The notes under the pieces are model-generated. The model was not told where the DNA came from and did no database searches. It saw only the letters and a program-made list of their open reading frames with translations. 25,312 nt of DNA. Origin: a virus. Taxonomy: Duplodnaviria > Heunggongvirae > Uroviricota > Caudoviricetes. The DNA lies in the IMG/VR virus record IMGVR_UViG_648276668_000012. The stretch is one strand, 5' to 3'. Made by a program: the position numbers and the translations under genes. Shown here piece by piece: positions 2,581 through 11,633 of this stretch (within the stretch, counting starts at the first letter, position 1; the number at the start of each line of letters is the position of its first letter).

Positions 2581-3651
2581 TTATCTTCTATAGGTCAAAA
2601 GGTGAATTAATATATATATTGCAATAGCTAGGATTGCTCCACATATATAATATGTGCCTGTCGGTATGAATTTAAGAATAAAAGCAAAGGCGGCACCATA
2701 TATCAAGTATGCGAAAATTTTACTGAATTTTGTTTTCGTGTTTTTAAACTTCACAACAACAGAGAAGTCATTTAGTCTTGCTTTTTTATCATTAACAATC
2801 TTCCAATGGTAAATCATAGGATCGTGATCACCAAATGAAATATCCTTATCGAAATATTTTGTCCATGTTTCAGACTCTAATATTCTACATCCTTTATAAC
2901 TTGAACCAGATGCTGAACATTCATCAACAATATCTCTAATGATAAACAAATGTGTTTTTAAAGGCGTACAAGCGGCGCTCGCCAGAGTTGTAGCGATTTC
3001 TGAAGGTAGGTTTCTTTGTTCATTGATCCTAAAGTCAATAATATCAGAACGCTCAATATTGCTTTTGAGAAAGAGATCTTTGGGATAAAATGTTTTTACT
3101 AAAATACCTATATCATCAATGTTGAGTTTAACGCGAAATCTCAAGTAATGTGGAGCGTCCTCTGAAGATAGGCAATCTTTTAGCTTGAAAACAATAAAAG
3201 TACCATTATGTATTTTAGTTACCTTAACTCTACGGTCAAGTTCACCACCACTAAAAGTTAGCTTTGTATTAACAACTAAATCACCTTTATTCGCGAGTAC
3301 TAATTTTAAATGTCTGACGTCTACAGTTTTGGTATTAATAAGATACTCATTAAAAACAGCCGTTACGAGATCTCGGCTTGACTCGAGATTTTCACTAAGA
3401 TCCGAAAAAAAACAGTTTTCTTTCTCAAATGGTAAAAATATGCATATTGCGCCATGATTTGCAATAGTATCGTCATCGGGTTTTTCAAACGTAATACCAA
3501 AATCTAAATAACCAAATTTATGAGCACTTAGATTCCAAAAGTTTATATGCAACTCATTAATAAAATTCTTGTGTTCAGGGTTATAGGTCGAGCTCGAATC
3601 ACTGCGATAATCCCTGCATCCCCAGACAGCAAAACTTTTTGACATAAACAT
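2581..3651 (-). CDS. Hypothetical protein (356 aa) with C-terminal double transmembrane anchor
   Basis: Long AT-rich ORF; last ~45 residues form two hydrophobic helices (IFAYLIYGAAFAFILKF ... YYICGAILAIAIYILIHLL); no recognisable catalytic motif. Confidence 0.55.
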   Translation of the reverse strand: MFMSKSFAVWGCRDYRSDSSSTYNPEHKNFINELHINFWNLSAHKFGYLDFGITFEKPDDDTIANHGAICIFLPFEKENCFFSDLSENLESSRDLVTAVFNEYLINTKTVDVRHLKLVLANKGDLVVNTKLTFSGGELDRRVKVTKIHNGTFIVFKLKDCLSSEDAPHYLRFRVKLNIDDIGILVKTFYPKDLFLKSNIERSDIIDFRINEQRNLPSEIATTLASAACTPLKTHLFIIRDIVDECSASGSSYKGCRILESETWTKYFDKDISFGDHDPMIYHWKIVNDKKARLNDFSVVVKFKNTKTKFSKIFAYLIYGAAFAFILKFIPTGTYYICGAILAIAIYILIHLLTYRR

Positions 3652-3673: not shown

Positions 3674-4240
3674 TTATACATCTGATAATATTTTTCGATA
3701 GCATCTTGCGATGGGTTTAATATCGTCAAGCATACAATCAAAAGATGTTTGTCCACTGCTAACTTGCACTCTCCCAACTGGAATTCTAACCAGATCACGA
3801 GAACTTATTTTTCCTTCTATTTCAACAATCCATTTCCCATCAATAATTTCATCAAATTTCATGTCTACTAGATAATTATCTGATAACTCAGAAAATATTG
3901 CGGGGGTAATCATATCCTCCGGGAGCAAATCTTTATCAAAAATGTAAGAGGAATCACCTTGTAGCTTGCCATCTACTATTTTGTAATGTGGCAATTTTAT
4001 ACCTTCTTTCGTTGCCTCAAGACGAGGGGAACCAACACCAGACACTAACCACTCGAGAGACACTCCCGTTTCTAGAGCGCACTGGATTACCCAATCTGCT
4101 GGAAAAATATCACGCATATAGCGCGTTGCCATGGTGCTCTTAGAAACACCTAAATGATCACAGAGAGCCTGACGGGTACCGAACCCATATGCTTCAACTA
4201 AACGTTCTATGGCTTTCTTACCGCCGCTATTGAAATCCAT
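3674..4240 (-). CDS. cI: CI-type immunity repressor (186 CI-like)
   Basis: Protein 'MDFNSGGKKAIERLVEAYGF...CALETGVSLEWLVSGVG' resembles the 186 CI N-terminal DNA-binding domain; chosen start has GGAG RBS 6 nt upstream (the track's longer ORF to 4327 lacks this); position between int and apl/cII. Confidence 0.75.
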   Translation of the reverse strand: MDFNSGGKKAIERLVEAYGFGTRQALCDHLGVSKSTMATRYMRDIFPADWVIQCALETGVSLEWLVSGVGSPRLEATKEGIKLPHYKIVDGKLQGDSSYIFDKDLLPEDMITPAIFSELSDNYLVDMKFDEIIDGKWIVEIEGKISSRDLVRIPVGRVQVSSGQTSFDCMLDDIKPIARCYRKILSDV

Positions 4241-4267
4241 AAGTTCTCCAAAGAAATCCAAAATTCG

Positions 4268-4296
4268 TTGACAGATTCCAAAAGCGATCTTAAAGT
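4268..4296 (+). promoter_or_regulatory. Candidate rightward early promoter (pR-like): TTGACA-N17-TAAAGT
   Basis: Perfect -35 hexamer TTGACA at 4268-4273, 17-nt spacer, -10-like TAAAGT at 4291-4296, about 90 bp upstream of the apl start. Confidence 0.4.
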
Positions 4297-4385
4297 TGAA
4301 CCAGAAGTGTTCTTTTGGAGCCTTCACTACTAATCACGACAAACAACGGCTCGCCACAAGCCATATCTAGAAGGAATGTTGCCTT

Positions 4386-4589
4386 ATGACACCTAACATT
4401 TCAATTACTCTGAATACACCACATGTCACAATCGAACGTTATAGCGAACTGACTGGCCTTTCTATTGATACGATTAACGACATGTTGGCTGATGGCCGAC
4501 TACCTCGTCATCGTCTTCGTAAAGACAAAAAACGTGAAAAGGTAATGATTAACCTGGCTGCTCTGACTGTTGATGCTTTGTCTGCTTAA
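4386..4589 (+). CDS. apl: Apl/Cox-like excisionase and transcriptional regulator
   Basis: 67-aa protein with helix-turn-helix-like segment ([22 protein letters not shown]); first gene of the rightward operon, divergent from cI, as in 186/P2. Confidence 0.6.
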
Positions 4590-4644: not shown

Positions 4645-5163
4645 TTGAAAACCATGTTTGATTACCAAGTTTCCAAACATCCACATTTTGATGAAGCCTG
4701 TCGTGCATTCGCACTGCGCCACAACCTGGTGCAACTGGCAGAATGTGCAGGCATGAATGTACAGATTCTGCGGAACAAGCTGAACCCAGCTCAACCTCAT
4801 TTATTAACCGCACCAGAAATCTGGCTGCTTACCGATCTGACTGAAGATTCAACGCTGGTAGATGGTTTTCTGGCTCAGATTCACTGCCTGCCATGCGTAC
4901 CGATTAATGAGGTGGCAAAAGAGAAACTGCCGCATTACGTCATGAGTGCAACTGCTGAAATTGGGCGTGTCGCGGCAGGTGCGGTTTCTGGCGATGTAAA
5001 AACCAGTGCCGGTCGTCGTGATGCTATCAGCAGCATTAACTCTGTAACACGACTGATGGCGCTGGCCGCTGTTTCATTGCAGGCCCGTTTACAGGCTAAT
5101 CCTGCGATGGCGAGTGCAGTTGATACCGTGACTGGCCTCGGTGCTTCATTCGGTTTGCTGTGA
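4645..5163 (+). CDS. cII: CII-like lysogeny establishment regulator (186 CII family)
   Basis: N-terminus '[20 protein letters not shown]' and C-terminus '...[21 protein letters not shown]' closely match the remembered 186 CII sequence; true start may be the ATG at 4654. Confidence 0.8.
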
Positions 5164-5977: not shown

Positions 5978-6204
5978 TGGCTGATGCAATGGATCTCGTA
6001 CAGCAGCGCGTTGAAGAAGAACGCCAGCGCCATATCCGTGCTGCCCGTGCCAAAACGCCGGGCGTGTCCCGCGTGCTTTGCATTGAGTGTGAAGCGCCAA
6101 TTCCGCCAGCACGCCGCCGCGCTATTCCAGGTGTGCAGCTTTGCATTACCTGCCAGGAGATCGCAGAGCTGAAAGGCAAACATTACAACGGAGGTGCTGT
6201 ATGA
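5977..6204 (+). CDS. TraR/DksA-family C4 zinc-finger protein
   Basis: CxxC...CxxC motif (CIECEAPIPP...LCITCQ); 75 aa; typical of P2 orf82-like early proteins. Confidence 0.7.
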   Translation: MADAMDLVQQRVEEERQRHIRAARAKTPGVSRVLCIECEAPIPPARRRAIPGVQLCITCQEIAELKGKHYNGGAV

Positions 6205-7058
6205 GCACCATCCTGAAATGGGCGGGTAATAAAACCGTCATTATGCCAGAACTGAAAAAATACCTTCCTGCTGGCCCGCGACTGGTTGAACCTTTCGCGG
6301 GTTCTTGTGCTGTGATGATGGAGACGGATTACCCCAGCTATCTGGTTGCGGATATTAATCCTGATTTAATCAACCTCTATAAAAAGGTTGCCGCTGATTG
6401 TGAATCGTTTATATCTCGCGCCAGAGTTTTATTTGAGAACGCAAACAGGGAGATGGCTTATTACAACATAAGGCAGGAGTTTAATTACTCAACTGAAATT
6501 ACTGATTTCATGAAAGCGGTATATTTCCTGTATCTCAATCGTCACGGTTACCGTGGTTTATGTCGCTATAACAAGAGCGGGCATTTCAACATTCCCTATG
6601 GTAATTATAAAAATCCGTATTTCCCTGAAAAAGAAATTCGCGCATTTGCAGAAAAGGCCCAGCGAGCCACGTTTATCTGCGCCAGCTTTGATGAAACGCT
6701 GGCGATGTTGAAGGCGGGGGATGTGGTGTATTGCGATCCGCCTTATGACGGTGCGTTTTCCGGCTATCACACTGACGGCTTCACTGAAGATGACCAGTAT
6801 CACCTGGCATCCGTTCTTGAACATCGGTCATCAGAAGGACATCCGGTCATTGTTTCTAACAGTGACACATCCCTGATCCGTTCGCTGTATCGCAATTTTA
6901 CTCACCACTACATCAAGGCAAAACGCAGCATTGGCGTGGCAGCTGGTGAGAGTAAATCTGCAACAGAAATCATCGCTGTTTCCGGGCCGCGCTGCTGGGT
7001 AGGATTTGATCCTTCGCGTGGCGTGGATTGTTCCGTCGTGTACGGAGTGCGTGCATGA
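6201..7058 (+). CDS. dam: DNA adenine methyltransferase (Dam family, N6-adenine)
   Basis: N-terminal 'ILKWAGNK' AdoMet-binding motif and catalytic 'DPPY' motif ([10 protein letters not shown]); GGAGG RBS; ATGA overlap with the upstream gene. Confidence 0.85.
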
Positions 7059-9469
7059 GCCATGCTGATATGAACAACTGCAGCGGCTTTAACGAGGTCG
7101 CCGCAGCATTCTCATGGAACAGCCCGAAAAAGGCCATTAACCCTTATCTGGACCCGGCGGAAGTTGCGCCGGTTTCTGCGCTTTCAAACCTGATCACTCT
7201 GTACGCTGCCGATAACGAGCAGGAACAACTGCGCCGCGAGGCACTGAGTGATCAGGTCTGGGAGCGTTATTTCTTTAATGAATCCCATGATCCTGTCCAG
7301 CGCGAAATGAAGCAGGATAAGCTCATTAGCCGGGCAAAGCTGGCGCATGAGCAGCAGCGTTTTAATCCGGATATGGTCATTCTGGCGGACGTCAACGCCC
7401 AGCCTTCCCATATCAGCAAGCCGCTGATGCAACGTATTGAATACTTTAGCAGCCTGGGCAGGCCAAAGGCTTATTCCCGCTATTTACGTGAGACGATTAA
7501 GCCATGTCTGGAACGACTGGAGCATGTACGCGACAGCCAGCTATCTGCATCTTTTCGCTTTATGGCAAGCCATGAAGGGCTGGACGGCCTGCTGATCCTG
7601 CCTGAAATGAGTCAGGATCAGGTGAAGCGCCTGTCTACCCTTGTCGCCGCGCATATGAGCATGTGCCTTGATGCAGCTTGTGGTGATTTGTATGCCACCG
7701 ATGACGTTAAGCCAGAAGAAATCCGCAAGACATGGGAAAAGGTGGCAGCGGAAACCCTGCGTCTGGATGTCATCCCGCCTGCGTTTGAGCAACTCCGCCG
7801 GAAAAGAAACCGCCGTAAACCCGTGCCCTATGAACTCATTCCGGGTTCGCTGGCGCGTATGTTGTGCGCCGACTGGTGGTACCGGAAATTATGGAAGATG
7901 CGTTGCGAATGGCGGGAAGAGCAGTTGCGTGCTGTTTGCCTGGTCAGCAAAAAAGCATCTCCCTATGTCAGCTATGAAGCCGTGATGCATAAACGTGAGC
8001 AGCGCCGTAAGTCGCTGGAGTTTTTCCGTTCTCATGAACTGGTGAACGAAGACGGCGACACGCTGAACATGGAGGATGTGGTAAACGCCAGCAGCAGCAA
8101 CCCGGCGCATCGCCGCAACGAGATGATGGCCTGTGTTAAAGGCCTGGAGCTTATCGCGGAAATGCGTGGTGACTGCGCCGTTTTCTACACCATCACCTGT
8201 CCGTCACGTTTCCATTCCACGCTAAATAACGGCAGGCCCAACCCGACCTGGACAAATGCGACGGTAAGACAAAGCAGCGATTATCTGGTCGGTATGTTTG
8301 CTGCATTTCGTAAGGCGATGCACAAAGCCGGGTTGCGCTGGTATGGCGTGCGGGTGGCTGAGCCGCATCACGACGGCACAGTTCACTGGCACCTGTTGTG
8401 TTTCATGCGCAAAAAAGACCGCCGCGCCATTACTGCATTGTTGCGTAAGTTTGCCATCCGTGAAGACCGCGAGGAGCTGGGCAATAACACGGGGCCACGC
8501 TTTAAGTCTGAGCTGATAAACCCGCGCAAAGGTACGCCAACAAGCTACATCGCGAAATATATCAGCAAGAACATTGACGGGCGTGGTCTGGCTGGCGAGA
8601 TCAGCAAGGAAACGGGTAAATCTCTGCGTGATAACGCTGAATACGTGAATGCCTGGGCGTCTTTGCATCGTGTTCAGCAATTCCGCTTCTTTGGTATTCC
8701 GGGACGTCAGGCTTACCGTGAACTTCGCTTGCTGGCTGGTCAGGCGGCAAGGCAACAGGGTGACAAAAAAGCAGGTGCGCCGGTACTGGATAACCCGTGT
8801 CTTGATGCCATTCTGGCTGCTGCTGATGCTGGTTGTTTTGCCACCTACATCATGAAGCAGGGCGGCGTACTGGTTCCCCGTAAATATCACCTCATCAGAA
8901 CCGCTTATGAAATCAACGAAGAGCCGACCGCCTATGGCGATCACGGTATTCGTATTTATGGCATCTGGTCACCCATTGCAGAGGGCAAGATCTGCACTCA
9001 TTCAGTGAAGTGGAAAATGGTTCGTAAAGCCGTTGACGTTCAGGAGGCGGCAGCCGACCAGGGCGCTTGCGCCCCTTGGACTCGTGGCAATAACTGTCCC
9101 CTTGCTGAAAATTTGAACCAACAGGAGAAAGATAAATCAGCTGATGGGGACACCAGAACGGACATTACCCGCATGGATGACAAGGAGTTGCACGATTACC
9201 TGCACAGTATGAGCAAAAAAGAGCGCCGGGAACTGGCTGCAAGGTTACGCTTGGTGAAACCGAAACGGCGTAAAGACTACAAACAGCGAATTACAGATCA
9301 TCAGCGACAGCAGCTCGTTTATGAGCTGAAGTCCAGAGGATTTGATGGCAGCGAGAAAGAGGTCGATTTACTCCTTCGCGGCGGCAGTATTCCGTCAGGA
9401 GCAGGCCTGCGTATCTTCTATCGGAACCAGCGTCTGCAGGAGGATGATAAATGGCGGAACCTGTATTAA
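7055..9469 (+). CDS. A: Replication initiation protein A (rolling-circle nicking endonuclease, P2 gpA family)
   Basis: About 805 aa; contains the HxH-type motif 'VHWHLLCF' and a tyrosine-rich active-site region 'YIAKYISKN'; start ATG overlaps the dam stop (ATGA). Confidence 0.85.
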
Positions 9470-9562
9470 TTACGCTGGTTAACAATTCGTGCTCTTAATA
9501 ATACCAGGCATATCAGGCTGATGAGCGTAAAAAACGTTTTACATCAGTAAGATTATTATATA

Positions 9563-9578
9563 CTGTAAATATAAACAG
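9563..9578. promoter_or_regulatory. LexA (SOS) box CTGTAAATATAAACAG
   Basis: Exact CTGT-N8-ACAG with AT-rich spacer, 44 bp upstream of the ATG at 9622, overlapping an AT-rich -10-like region (TATACT). Confidence 0.6.
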
Positions 9579-9621
9579 TGGTTATGTGTACAGTATTGCT
9601 TGTGGTGTCATAGGAGGAAAA

Positions 9622-9810
9622 ATGCAGGACTATTTTTTGGAGTCTTTGAAGCTCCAGCGCATTGATTTTTTTCTTAAGCTTGTAGCGGCTAGTGAGTGTA
9701 GTGATGAAGAGAAGGGGCTGGCTCTGCAGTGGGTTTCTGAGTTGACTGATGAACTCATGGCAAAAATCAGAACTCACGAATACAACCGCTCAATGGATGT
9801 CATCAGTTGA
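9622..9810 (+). CDS. Hypothetical protein (62 aa), first gene of an SOS-controlled pair
   Basis: AGGAGG RBS immediately upstream of the ATG; preceded by the LexA box. Confidence 0.5.
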   Translation: MQDYFLESLKLQRIDFFLKLVAASECSDEEKGLALQWVSELTDELMAKIRTHEYNRSMDVIS

Positions 9811-9820
9811 GGTGACTTTT

Positions 9821-10054
9821 ATGCGCATTGAAATAATGATCGATAAAGAGCAGAAGATTAGCCAGTCTACCCTGGACGCCCTTGAATCAGAGCTTTACCG
9901 CAATCTGCGCCCCCTATATCCAAAAACGGTAATTCGCATCCGCAAAGGTAGCTCTAACGGTGTGGAACTGACCGGACTGCAACTGGACGAAGAAAGAAAA
10001 CAAGTGATGAAAATTATGCAGAAGGTGTGGGAAGACGACAGCTGGCTGCATTAA
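9821..10054 (+). CDS. tum: DinI-family protein (Tum-like antirepressor module)
   Basis: 'MRIEIMIDKEQKISQSTLDALESEL...VWEDDSWL' aligns by eye with E. coli DinI (MRIEVTIAK...ETWESADDWF); GAGGTG RBS; LexA box upstream of the pair. Confidence 0.75.
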   Translation: MRIEIMIDKEQKISQSTLDALESELYRNLRPLYPKTVIRIRKGSSNGVELTGLQLDEERKQVMKIMQKVWEDDSWLH

Positions 10055-10213
10055 GAAAAGTTGCTGGCGTCTGAACTTGGTTCTGGCGTCAGCAAGGTTG
10101 AACAACGAGTACAGTGAGGCGTTAGGTGTGGCGTTTATTTGATGAGTGAGCGCCCGTTCTGCGACAGGTTCGGAGATTAAGGTTGAAACTACGGGCAAAA
10201 TACCATCTTTTTC

Positions 10214-10639
10214 CTACTTAATTGAGTCCAGTAACAAGTTACAGTTACTCTCATTGTAGAGAGAACGAGCAATTAGTGTTACCTGCTTTCCATTCATTCC
10301 CGGCTTATCCCATAACACAGCTTCTTGCGACGCCACAAATTCAGCATAATCAATTATGCGTTGTTCGTGATCTGGTTCCTCATAGCCAAAGTATGAGAGC
10401 GCATCGTTGTAAGCGTGGTAAGCTGCTTTCTGTAATATCTTGATATCGGCTGTAGGTACTTGCTCCGTGTAGCTAGGATCTAATTGTGTGCTACTGCCAT
10501 AGAATGCACATGAAAGGTAAGATATTGATTTCTGTTGAGCTTTAGTTCCTTTCTCATAGTTTTTAGCTGTTACCGCCTGAACTGGGACGCTAACAAAGCT
10601 TGCAACCAGAATTAAAATTAATACGTAAAAGCTTTTCAT
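10214..10639 (-). CDS. Hypothetical secreted/periplasmic protein (141 aa) with N-terminal signal peptide
   Basis: N-terminus 'MKSFYVLILILVASFVSVPVQAVTA' is a typical Sec signal peptide; AT-rich; opposite orientation to flanking genes; at the P2 tin/old-equivalent position. Confidence 0.55.
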   Translation of the reverse strand: MKSFYVLILILVASFVSVPVQAVTAKNYEKGTKAQQKSISYLSCAFYGSSTQLDPSYTEQVPTADIKILQKAAYHAYNDALSYFGYEEPDHEQRIIDYAEFVASQEAVLWDKPGMNGKQVTLIARSLYNESNCNLLLDSIK

Positions 10640-10912
10640 TTTGACCTCAGCCGAAACGTTAGAGAGACTATCGAAATTTGTAAAACCCGTGGCGATTCAG
10701 TTTGAGATCCTCCCCCTTACATGATTTTTAATCAAATATATGCTTTTGTAAGCATACCTGTTAACCGAATTATTTATTTTTAGAGATCTTCCGACATACT
10801 GATTATGCCCGCTGAGGAGTTCACCTTGCGTAAAGTCCGATTCGCTTTACTCGTCTGTGCATGCCTATGCTGCATGAGATTGCATGATCGTTTGAGGATC
10901 GTTTTTGCTAAG

Positions 10913-11087: not shown

Positions 11088-11633
11088 ATGGATGCTATTA
11101 CTGGATTATTGGATTTTTTTAGAAAGATTCCAACGGCACTTCTTGTAGCTATTACATGTGGTTTAAGTTTGATCCTTTTTTTGCCAGAATCTTTAGCTTC
11201 TAAAGTTGCGGTTGATGGTTTCCGTAAAGAATATAGAAATTTCATAGGACCAGCATTTTTACTGGCTGTCTCTTTTTTAGTTGCAAGAGTATATCAGTTT
11301 TTTCATGACCTATATGGCGATAGACAAAGGCACAAAGTACGTATCTCTTATTTGGAGAAGCTAACTCCTGAGGAGAAGGGATACCTCTGGTCTTATATAA
11401 TTGATGGCGAAAACTCACTAATGTGTGGTCCTGAAGATGGTGTTATGGGGGGGTTGGTTGCTAAGCGCATAACCTATAGAGCTGCAAACGTGGGCAGTAT
11501 GATTGACGGATTCGCTTTCAATTTGCAGCCGTGGGCTCGCGAGCATTTACAGAACAACACTCATTTATTAGAAGGAGCGGTCGGTAGGGCAATGACACCG
11601 GGTGAGAAACTAGGATTCAGGCGTAGATTTTAA
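11088..11633 (+). CDS. Hypothetical inner-membrane protein (181 aa, two N-terminal TM helices); possibly SieB-like superinfection exclusion
   Basis: Two hydrophobic helices (IPTALLVAITCGLSLILFL; IGPAFLLAVSFLVARVYQFF) followed by a soluble domain; lies between cos and portal gene Q, where P2 has no gene; lower GC than backbone. Confidence 0.5.
   Translation: MDAITGLLDFFRKIPTALLVAITCGLSLILFLPESLASKVAVDGFRKEYRNFIGPAFLLAVSFLVARVYQFFHDLYGDRQRHKVRISYLEKLTPEEKGYLWSYIIDGENSLMCGPEDGVMGGLVAKRITYRAANVGSMIDGFAFNLQPWAREHLQNNTHLLEGAVGRAMTPGEKLGFRRRF

Follow-up and report, generated by a model that had tools for sequence, protein, structure and literature searches.

How a prophage of the P2 family comes to answer DNA damage is the question raised by a short stretch of the virus record IMGVR_UViG_648276668_000012. 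The window analyzed here (the whole stretch of DNA, 25,312 nt) represents a Fels-2/186-type prophage of the P2 family, and directly downstream of its replication protein A gene it carries two small open reading frames (ORFs), which an original prediction had read as an SOS-controlled induction module of the Tum type. Our analysis supports that interpretation, and we put at roughly 90% the probability that the unit is the SOS induction operon of this prophage. It consists of tumA (9622–9810, + strand), which starts at an ATG and encodes a 62-aa acidic, helical-hairpin protein homologous to the N-terminal half of phage 186 Tum, and tumB (9821–10054, + strand), which encodes a 77-aa DinI-family protein. 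The module explains why the window prophage should be DNA-damage inducible, unlike P2; inducibility by such a module is textbook knowledge for 186, Fels-2, and PSP3, and genetic work in Escherichia coli HS has confirmed it.

Genetic evidence for this reading comes from the P2-like prophage of E. coli HS, whose tum unit is 98% identical to that of the window at the DNA level. There, cells treated with mitomycin C no longer lyse or form virion foci once tum has been deleted in frame, nor do they in a lexA(Ind-) background (PMC11195241); the comparison of mitomycin C induction in wild-type and lexA(Ind-) backgrounds that had been proposed as a check has in effect already been made on this near-identical module. 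We mapped the deletion primers to the HS chromosome, where they join the ATG (10620) to the TGA (10806–10808) of the 62-aa ORF ECHS_RS04495 (locus L018, 10620–10808), whose product matches the window TumA at 61 of 62 residues, and leave the DinI-like gene (ECHS_RS04500) and its ribosome-binding site intact. Because the deletion removes only the 62-aa ORF and yet abolishes induction, the small upstream gene is the induction factor.

This result relocates one part of the original prediction, which had tied the antirepressor role to the DinI-like gene. The corresponding alternative, that the second ORF is the antirepressor (a minimal Tum) and the first an unrelated small leader ORF, draws on the second ORF being the only part with a recognizable family, and on the 186 record, in which shortened, DinI-like forms of Tum are listed that “modulate SOS induction.” We regard it as very unlikely, given that the HS deletion takes out the first ORF alone and spares both the Shine-Dalgarno (SD) sequence and the coding sequence of tumB, that the first ORF is homologous to the N-terminal half of Tum, and that tumA of PSP3 is annotated for ultraviolet (UV) induction. 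Furthermore, a tumA gene stands behind a LexA box with no DinI-like gene in 18 of the 40 loci of our ortholog set (38 loci, one per bacterial species within the Enterobacterales, together with the window and E. coli HS), and the same is seen in ESSI-2-type phages, namely at L022 403–663 (ESSI2_ev040) and L023 ~451–618 (Cronobacter ESSI-2). Both the HS deletion and the PSP3 annotation assign the antirepressor role to the upstream 62-aa gene.

The module has well-characterized relatives. In phage 186, Tum is expressed from the LexA-controlled promoter p95 and inactivates the CI repressor by sequestration (PMC7708051; PMC3121763). The two ORFs of the window have their homologs in the two halves of 186 Tum, both phages carry a 186-type CI/Apl/CII switch, and the tum unit follows gene A in the same order in 186, PSP3, Fels-2, and E. 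coli HS; the position after gene A and the type of switch place the window unit among the 186-type Tum modules. The 186 SOS operon (p95-tum-orf97) encodes one 146-aa Tum behind one LexA box, with orf97 next, whereas in the window there are two genes and two boxes, and orf97 is absent. This difference from the single 186 protein had been pointed out in the original prediction and is real, but it is not new: tum was reported to be split in two in Fels-2 and PSP3 (Lemire et al., 2011, PMC3121763, citing Bunny et al., 2002), and the upstream gene of PSP3 was reported to carry the antirepressor activity (PMC3121763). The PSP3 record itself describes tumA as “similar to 5' end 186 tum; UV induction of prophage” and tumB as “similar to dinI and 3' end of 186 tum.” The tum unit is found in 1126 of 5426 complete E. 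coli genomes (~21%), as well as in many Klebsiella and Salmonella phage records. The split tumA/tumB module is already described, very common, and genetically validated.

The closest of these relatives are Fels-2, with 97% DNA identity across the tum unit, and the HS prophage, both of which share with the window the position after gpA, the promoter, and the double operator discussed below; in both, TumA is 98.4% and TumB 100% identical to the window proteins. In Fels-2 the two genes are annotated as STM2728 (hypothetical protein) and STM2726.1 (DinI family, “similar to TumB of PSP3”). An orf97-like gene lies downstream of tumB in Fels-2; the cargo of the window differs, and DNA homology with Fels-2 ends at the tumB stop codon. 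PSP3 resembles the window in having a two-gene tum split behind a LexA box after the A gene, but its TumA is of another sequence type (~21% identity; hhalign comparison with the window TumA family gives 8.6% probability), its LexA box is single, and its tumA and tumB lie in the same frame, parted by a stop codon. A more distant parallel is offered by the Gifsy GfoA/GftA systems, LexA-repressed operons that also combine a small antirepressor with a dinI homolog and act on a non-cleavable repressor; these belong to phages of the lambdoid type, place dinI first (the reverse order), and use antirepressors and repressors from unrelated families (PMC3121763).

The correspondence of the two ORFs with the two halves of 186 Tum, which had been suggested as a point to check, was borne out by different methods for each. 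For TumA, we compared a profile built from 28 diverse relatives against one made from the N-half family of 186 Tum, and the two aligned over residues 1–46 of both with 96.8% probability (hhalign, E 2.2e-10). Relatives of the 186-type N-terminal half also occur as stand-alone proteins of 63–78 aa, named “Tum protein.” The AlphaFold model of TumA is a two-helix hairpin (predicted local distance difference test, pLDDT, 88); a fold search with it returned generic hairpins only (best E 0.89), the TumA-family profile found nothing among PDB sequences, and TumA has zero matches in Pfam, NCBIfam, and PADLOC. An SD sequence, AGGAGG (9612–9617, + strand), precedes the gene, and this motif or a GGAGG-containing variant is found before the tumA ATG in most orthologous loci. 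The window protein is 98.4% identical to Fels-2 STM2728 and 100% identical to that of many Klebsiella P2-like phages (one copy of the gene lies at L001 3153–3341). In the E. coli genome and phage records examined it is labeled “hypothetical protein,” or occasionally “levan regulatory protein”; recognition of TumA would be of value for annotation, as a key induction gene is at present a hypothetical protein that lacks a Pfam or NCBIfam model.

The second protein is readily placed. As had been described, the 77-aa ORF encodes a DinI-family protein: it matches Pfam DinI (PF06183) over profile positions 1–63 of 63 (E 6.6e-23; 81.3 bits, cut-off 24.2) and the structure of E. coli DinI (1GHH, E 2.7e-6). 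Against the model for the chromosomal DinI equivalog, NCBIfam NF007893, it scores only 42.7 bits, below the cut-off of 111; TumB is a phage DinI paralog and not an ortholog of the host dinI. It is 100% identical to Fels-2 STM2726.1 and 78% identical to PSP3 TumB, and BLASTP aligns it with residues 71–145 of 186 Tum (41% identity, E 3e-24). From its family membership, TumB likely modulates RecA filaments as DinI does. It is optional, because many P2-like prophages keep the tumA-like gene and the LexA box without a DinI-like gene, and is dispensable for the architecture of the module.

In the window, tumA and tumB are two adjacent, separately translated genes that match the halves of Tum, in place of the single 146-aa polypeptide of 186. 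They lie 10 nt apart in different frames, and each has its own SD, that of tumB (GAGGTGA, 9809–9815, + strand) overlapping the tumA stop codon; the unit therefore belongs to the split variant of PSP3 and Fels-2. It could be argued that a sequencing error has broken a single tum gene into these ORFs, or that programmed frameshifting joins them, in view of the 10-nt spacing, a tumB frame that is open back to 9749, and the single Tum of 186, and the original prediction had allowed that the ORFs might fuse on re-sequencing. Fels-2, E. coli HS, numerous phage records, and roughly a thousand E. coli genomes nevertheless show the same split, a strong SD precedes each ORF, and a search of 1.84 billion protein representatives with the first ORF turned up no protein in which it is fused to a DinI domain. 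Among the 22 loci with both genes, the gap ranges from 8 to 13 nt and all three relative frames occur, with a G-rich SD kept at the junction; this variation excludes a sequencing artefact and a frameshift fusion, and we consider that explanation vanishingly improbable. A 6-bp hairpin at 9799–9816, across the junction, was the only terminator-like match in our scan and was considered as an attenuator or coupling element; it was rejected, with one match against 1.5 expected from shuffled sequences and a structure that is not conserved in 18 other loci.

The sequence upstream of tumA has the features expected of SOS control. An exact CTGT-N8-ACAG box occurs once in the window (9563–9578), as had been predicted. 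This core by itself is weak evidence (at least one match in 30 of 100 shuffles), but the full 20-mer around it, LexA box 1 (9561–9580, + strand; TACTGTAAATATAAACAGTG), agrees with the consensus TACTGTATATATATACAGTA at 17 of 20 positions, a score reached in 0 of 100 shuffles. The claim that the box overlaps a promoter also holds: a −35 hexamer, TTTACA (9538–9543, + strand), lies 17 bp upstream of TACTGT (9561–9566, + strand), which falls inside box 1 and is identified as the −10 hexamer by homology to the annotated −10 of 186 p95. The layout is that of p95, where the −35 is TTCACA and the −10, TACTGT, is formed by the first six bases of the LexA site. A generic sigma-70 scan did not flag the tum promoter because TACTGT matches only three of the six bases of TATAAT.

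The arrangement is conserved well beyond the close relatives of the window. Of the 40 orthologous loci, 39 have a LexA-like box ahead of the small ORF, and in 30 of the 39 loci with a recognizable box either TTTACA or TTCACA stands exactly 17 bp before it, while the sequence of the spacer diverges; the −10 TACTGT is kept across the orthologous loci. This phylogenetic footprint is strong evidence that the predicted promoter and operator, in which a LexA site overlaps the −10, are functional, and binding of LexA is predicted at box 1. One could still suppose that the match is fortuitous and that transcripts reading through from the early operon, and not the SOS response, account for expression of the unit: the 16-mer core arises by chance in 30% of shuffles, and no recognizable terminator was found in 9470–9537, between the end of gene A and the tum promoter, where only a 10-nt palindrome, AAAACGTTTT, is present. 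With the 20-mer match never reached in shuffles, the box and its −35 spacing conserved between divergent flanks, and induction of the 98% identical HS prophage blocked by lexA(Ind-), we hold this to be extremely unlikely, and retain SOS control of tumA and tumB. Separately, early lytic transcripts might run from gene A into tumA-tumB.

Where the original prediction had described one LexA box, that box is present, but the operator holds a second one overlapping it. LexA box 2 (9576–9595, + strand; CAGTGGTTATGTGTACAGTA) agrees with the consensus at 14 of 20 positions and is offset by 15 bp from box 1, and the two meet in the junction CAGTGG; this is the arrangement of the colicin-type double overlapping SOS box. 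A second box with the same offset and the CAGTGG junction was found by a strict pattern in 18 of the 40 orthologous loci, and about six more have a one-base variant of the junction. The double-box loci come mostly from the Enterobacteriaceae (Escherichia, Citrobacter, Enterobacter, and relatives), with a few in neighboring families (e.g., Serratia, Pantoea stewartii), while a single box is found in most Pantoea and Erwinia loci and in 186, PSP3, and ESSI-2.

The likeness to bacteriocin operators extends beyond spacing. The 39-bp operator of the window is ~90% identical to the colicin N/klebicin operators over ~40 bp, including an identical run of 22 bp, CAGTGGTTATGTGTACAGTATT, and the 51-bp stretch at 9552–9602 matches 834 plasmid records, mostly of small mobilizable plasmids. 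The two plasmid matches that we inspected immediately precede bacteriocin genes, those for colicin N and a klebicin-like tRNase. The likeness is confined to the operator, as the promoter hexamers and downstream genes of the colicin and klebicin systems are unrelated to those of the window. For colicin operators, binding of a pair of LexA dimers has been reported (PMC2994835), and by analogy LexA would occupy both boxes in the window. The tum and colicin operators may resemble each other through shared ancestry or through convergence; if the former held, the 22-bp core could reflect operator exchange between Col plasmids and P2-like prophages. A double box in tum operators was not found described in the literature searched, which did not cover Bunny et al. 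(2002), and a full-text literature search for the operator string CAGTGGTTAT returned unrelated papers only.

Taken as a working model, these features would act as follows. In the lysogen, LexA would sit on the two overlapping boxes (9561–9595) and cover the −10 and start region of the p95-like promoter, so that tumA and tumB would be silent. Upon DNA damage, activated RecA would promote the self-cleavage of LexA and the promoter would fire. TumA, by homology an antirepressor of the window CI, would then bind this non-cleavable, 186-type repressor and end its hold on the lytic promoter, leading to lytic growth. TumB, made separately, would most likely bind RecA filaments and tune the SOS signal, as an accessory and not an essential component.

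Several points weigh against this account and set its bounds. The experimental results come from related elements (HS and 186), and the evidence for the upstream gene of PSP3 as the antirepressor is a personal communication, cited second-hand. BLASTP of TumA against 186 Tum gave no alignment, the likeness being seen by profile-profile comparison only. The left half of box 2 is poor, with GTGG in place of CTGT, and LexA binding there is predicted from the colicin operators and from conservation. The repressors have also diverged: the window CI is 50% identical to that of HS and 37% identical to that of Fels-2, and transfer of the TumA-CI interaction to the window assumes that TumA recognizes a conserved feature of CI. 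Finally, no fine-scale co-variation of TumA and CI was detected across 27 loci (Mantel r 0.06, p 0.24; r −0.08 for the other domain).

The pairing of TumA with CI bears directly on mechanism. TumA is 98–100% identical across prophages whose CI differs widely from that of the window, including, besides Fels-2 and HS, Klebsiella phages at 47–53% CI identity; the window CI is less than 60% identical to every CI in our phage collection and in the 38 genome loci (best 59%). TumA might accordingly induce by a route other than direct CI sequestration, for example through another component of the switch or a host factor; near-identical TumA paired with CI of only 37–59% identity, the lack of co-variation, and an HS experiment that speaks to the necessity of TumA and not to its mechanism would all fit with this. 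We consider it unlikely, as 186 Tum is reported to bind CI and block its operator binding (PMC3121763; PMC7708051), and TumA shares its homology with the N-terminal, antirepressor half of Tum. In addition, within the TumA family the N-terminal, DNA-binding domain of CI has a mean identity of 65%, compared with 41% for the C-terminal domain, and drops to 38–46% in 186 and PSP3, whose Tum proteins are of other types; the N-terminal domain thus offers a conserved candidate surface. Direct contact between TumA and CI is what we would expect in the window phage, and the data are compatible with TumA recognizing a conserved surface of the CI N-terminal domain and thereby cross-inducing heteroimmune relatives.

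Were this the case, heteroimmune prophages of the Fels-2 kind would have an antirepressor in common and could be induced together, much as in Gifsy crosstalk. Separately, a double SOS box that binds two LexA dimers would raise the threshold of damage needed for prophage induction, or delay its onset, relative to 186 and PSP3 with their single box. Whether the two traits are linked, such that the tum modules of the Fels-2 branch differ functionally from those of 186 and PSP3 by combining an operator for two LexA dimers with a shared antirepressor, is a tentative proposal to which we give somewhat less than even odds. The double operator is a modest, testable lead on induction thresholds, and the association of one TumA with many CI types is a similarly modest, testable lead on prophage cross-talk.

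The CI immunity repressor gene itself (3674–4327 as annotated, with a GTG start; − strand) has the domains Phage_CI_repr and Phage_CI_C (Pfam). The GTG start probably over-extends the gene, as homologs align from Met30 (4240) of the 217-aa ORF, which would give a coding sequence of 3674–4240. The sequence suggests a rare immunity type, while the rest of the early region is 95–98% identical to known phages. In three other loci, known from annotation, the CI gene has two tandem copies of the N-terminal helix-turn-helix (L008 23–964, 4LV2017; L010 500–1273, ST11-VIM1phi8.4; L014 125–985, PSP3), and these long forms may be real or over-extended ORFs. Next to CI are an Apl/Cox-like gene (4386–4589) and then the CII gene (4645–5163), followed by a Dam methylase (6141–7058) and by replication protein A (gpA, 7028–9469; Pfam Phage_GPA, E 3.6e-127), after which the tum unit begins.

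Beyond tumB, a 15-bp G+C-rich hairpin (10061–10095) is present in both the minimum-energy and the centroid RNA structures. It has no U-tract on the + strand, and on the − strand the hairpin is followed by CTTTTCTT; the whole 171-nt stretch that contains it folds no better than shuffled sequences (z −0.37). From these features, it is probably the terminator of the convergent gene at 10214–10639 (− strand), and it may also stop the tum transcript. The stretch from tumB to the portal gene is a variable cargo region. In the window, the orf97-like gene of Fels-2 and 186 is replaced there by this convergent gene, which encodes a 141-aa protein with a hydrophobic N-terminus (phrog_7437, function not known), and by a gene for a SieB-like superinfection-exclusion protein (11088–11633, + strand; Pfam SieB, E 2.2e-22).

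At the other end of the early region, between the integrase gene (1–1056, − strand) and cI, lie two PDC-M11 candidate anti-phage defence genes (1135–1506 and 1852–2553, both − strand). Beside them is a 356-aa ORF (2581–3651, − strand) with zero matches in Pfam, PHROGs, PADLOC, and NCBIfam. The matches that identify the candidate defence pair are to PDC-M11A (E 6.3e-79) and PDC-M11B (E 3.9e-49), the latter also with an ASCH domain.

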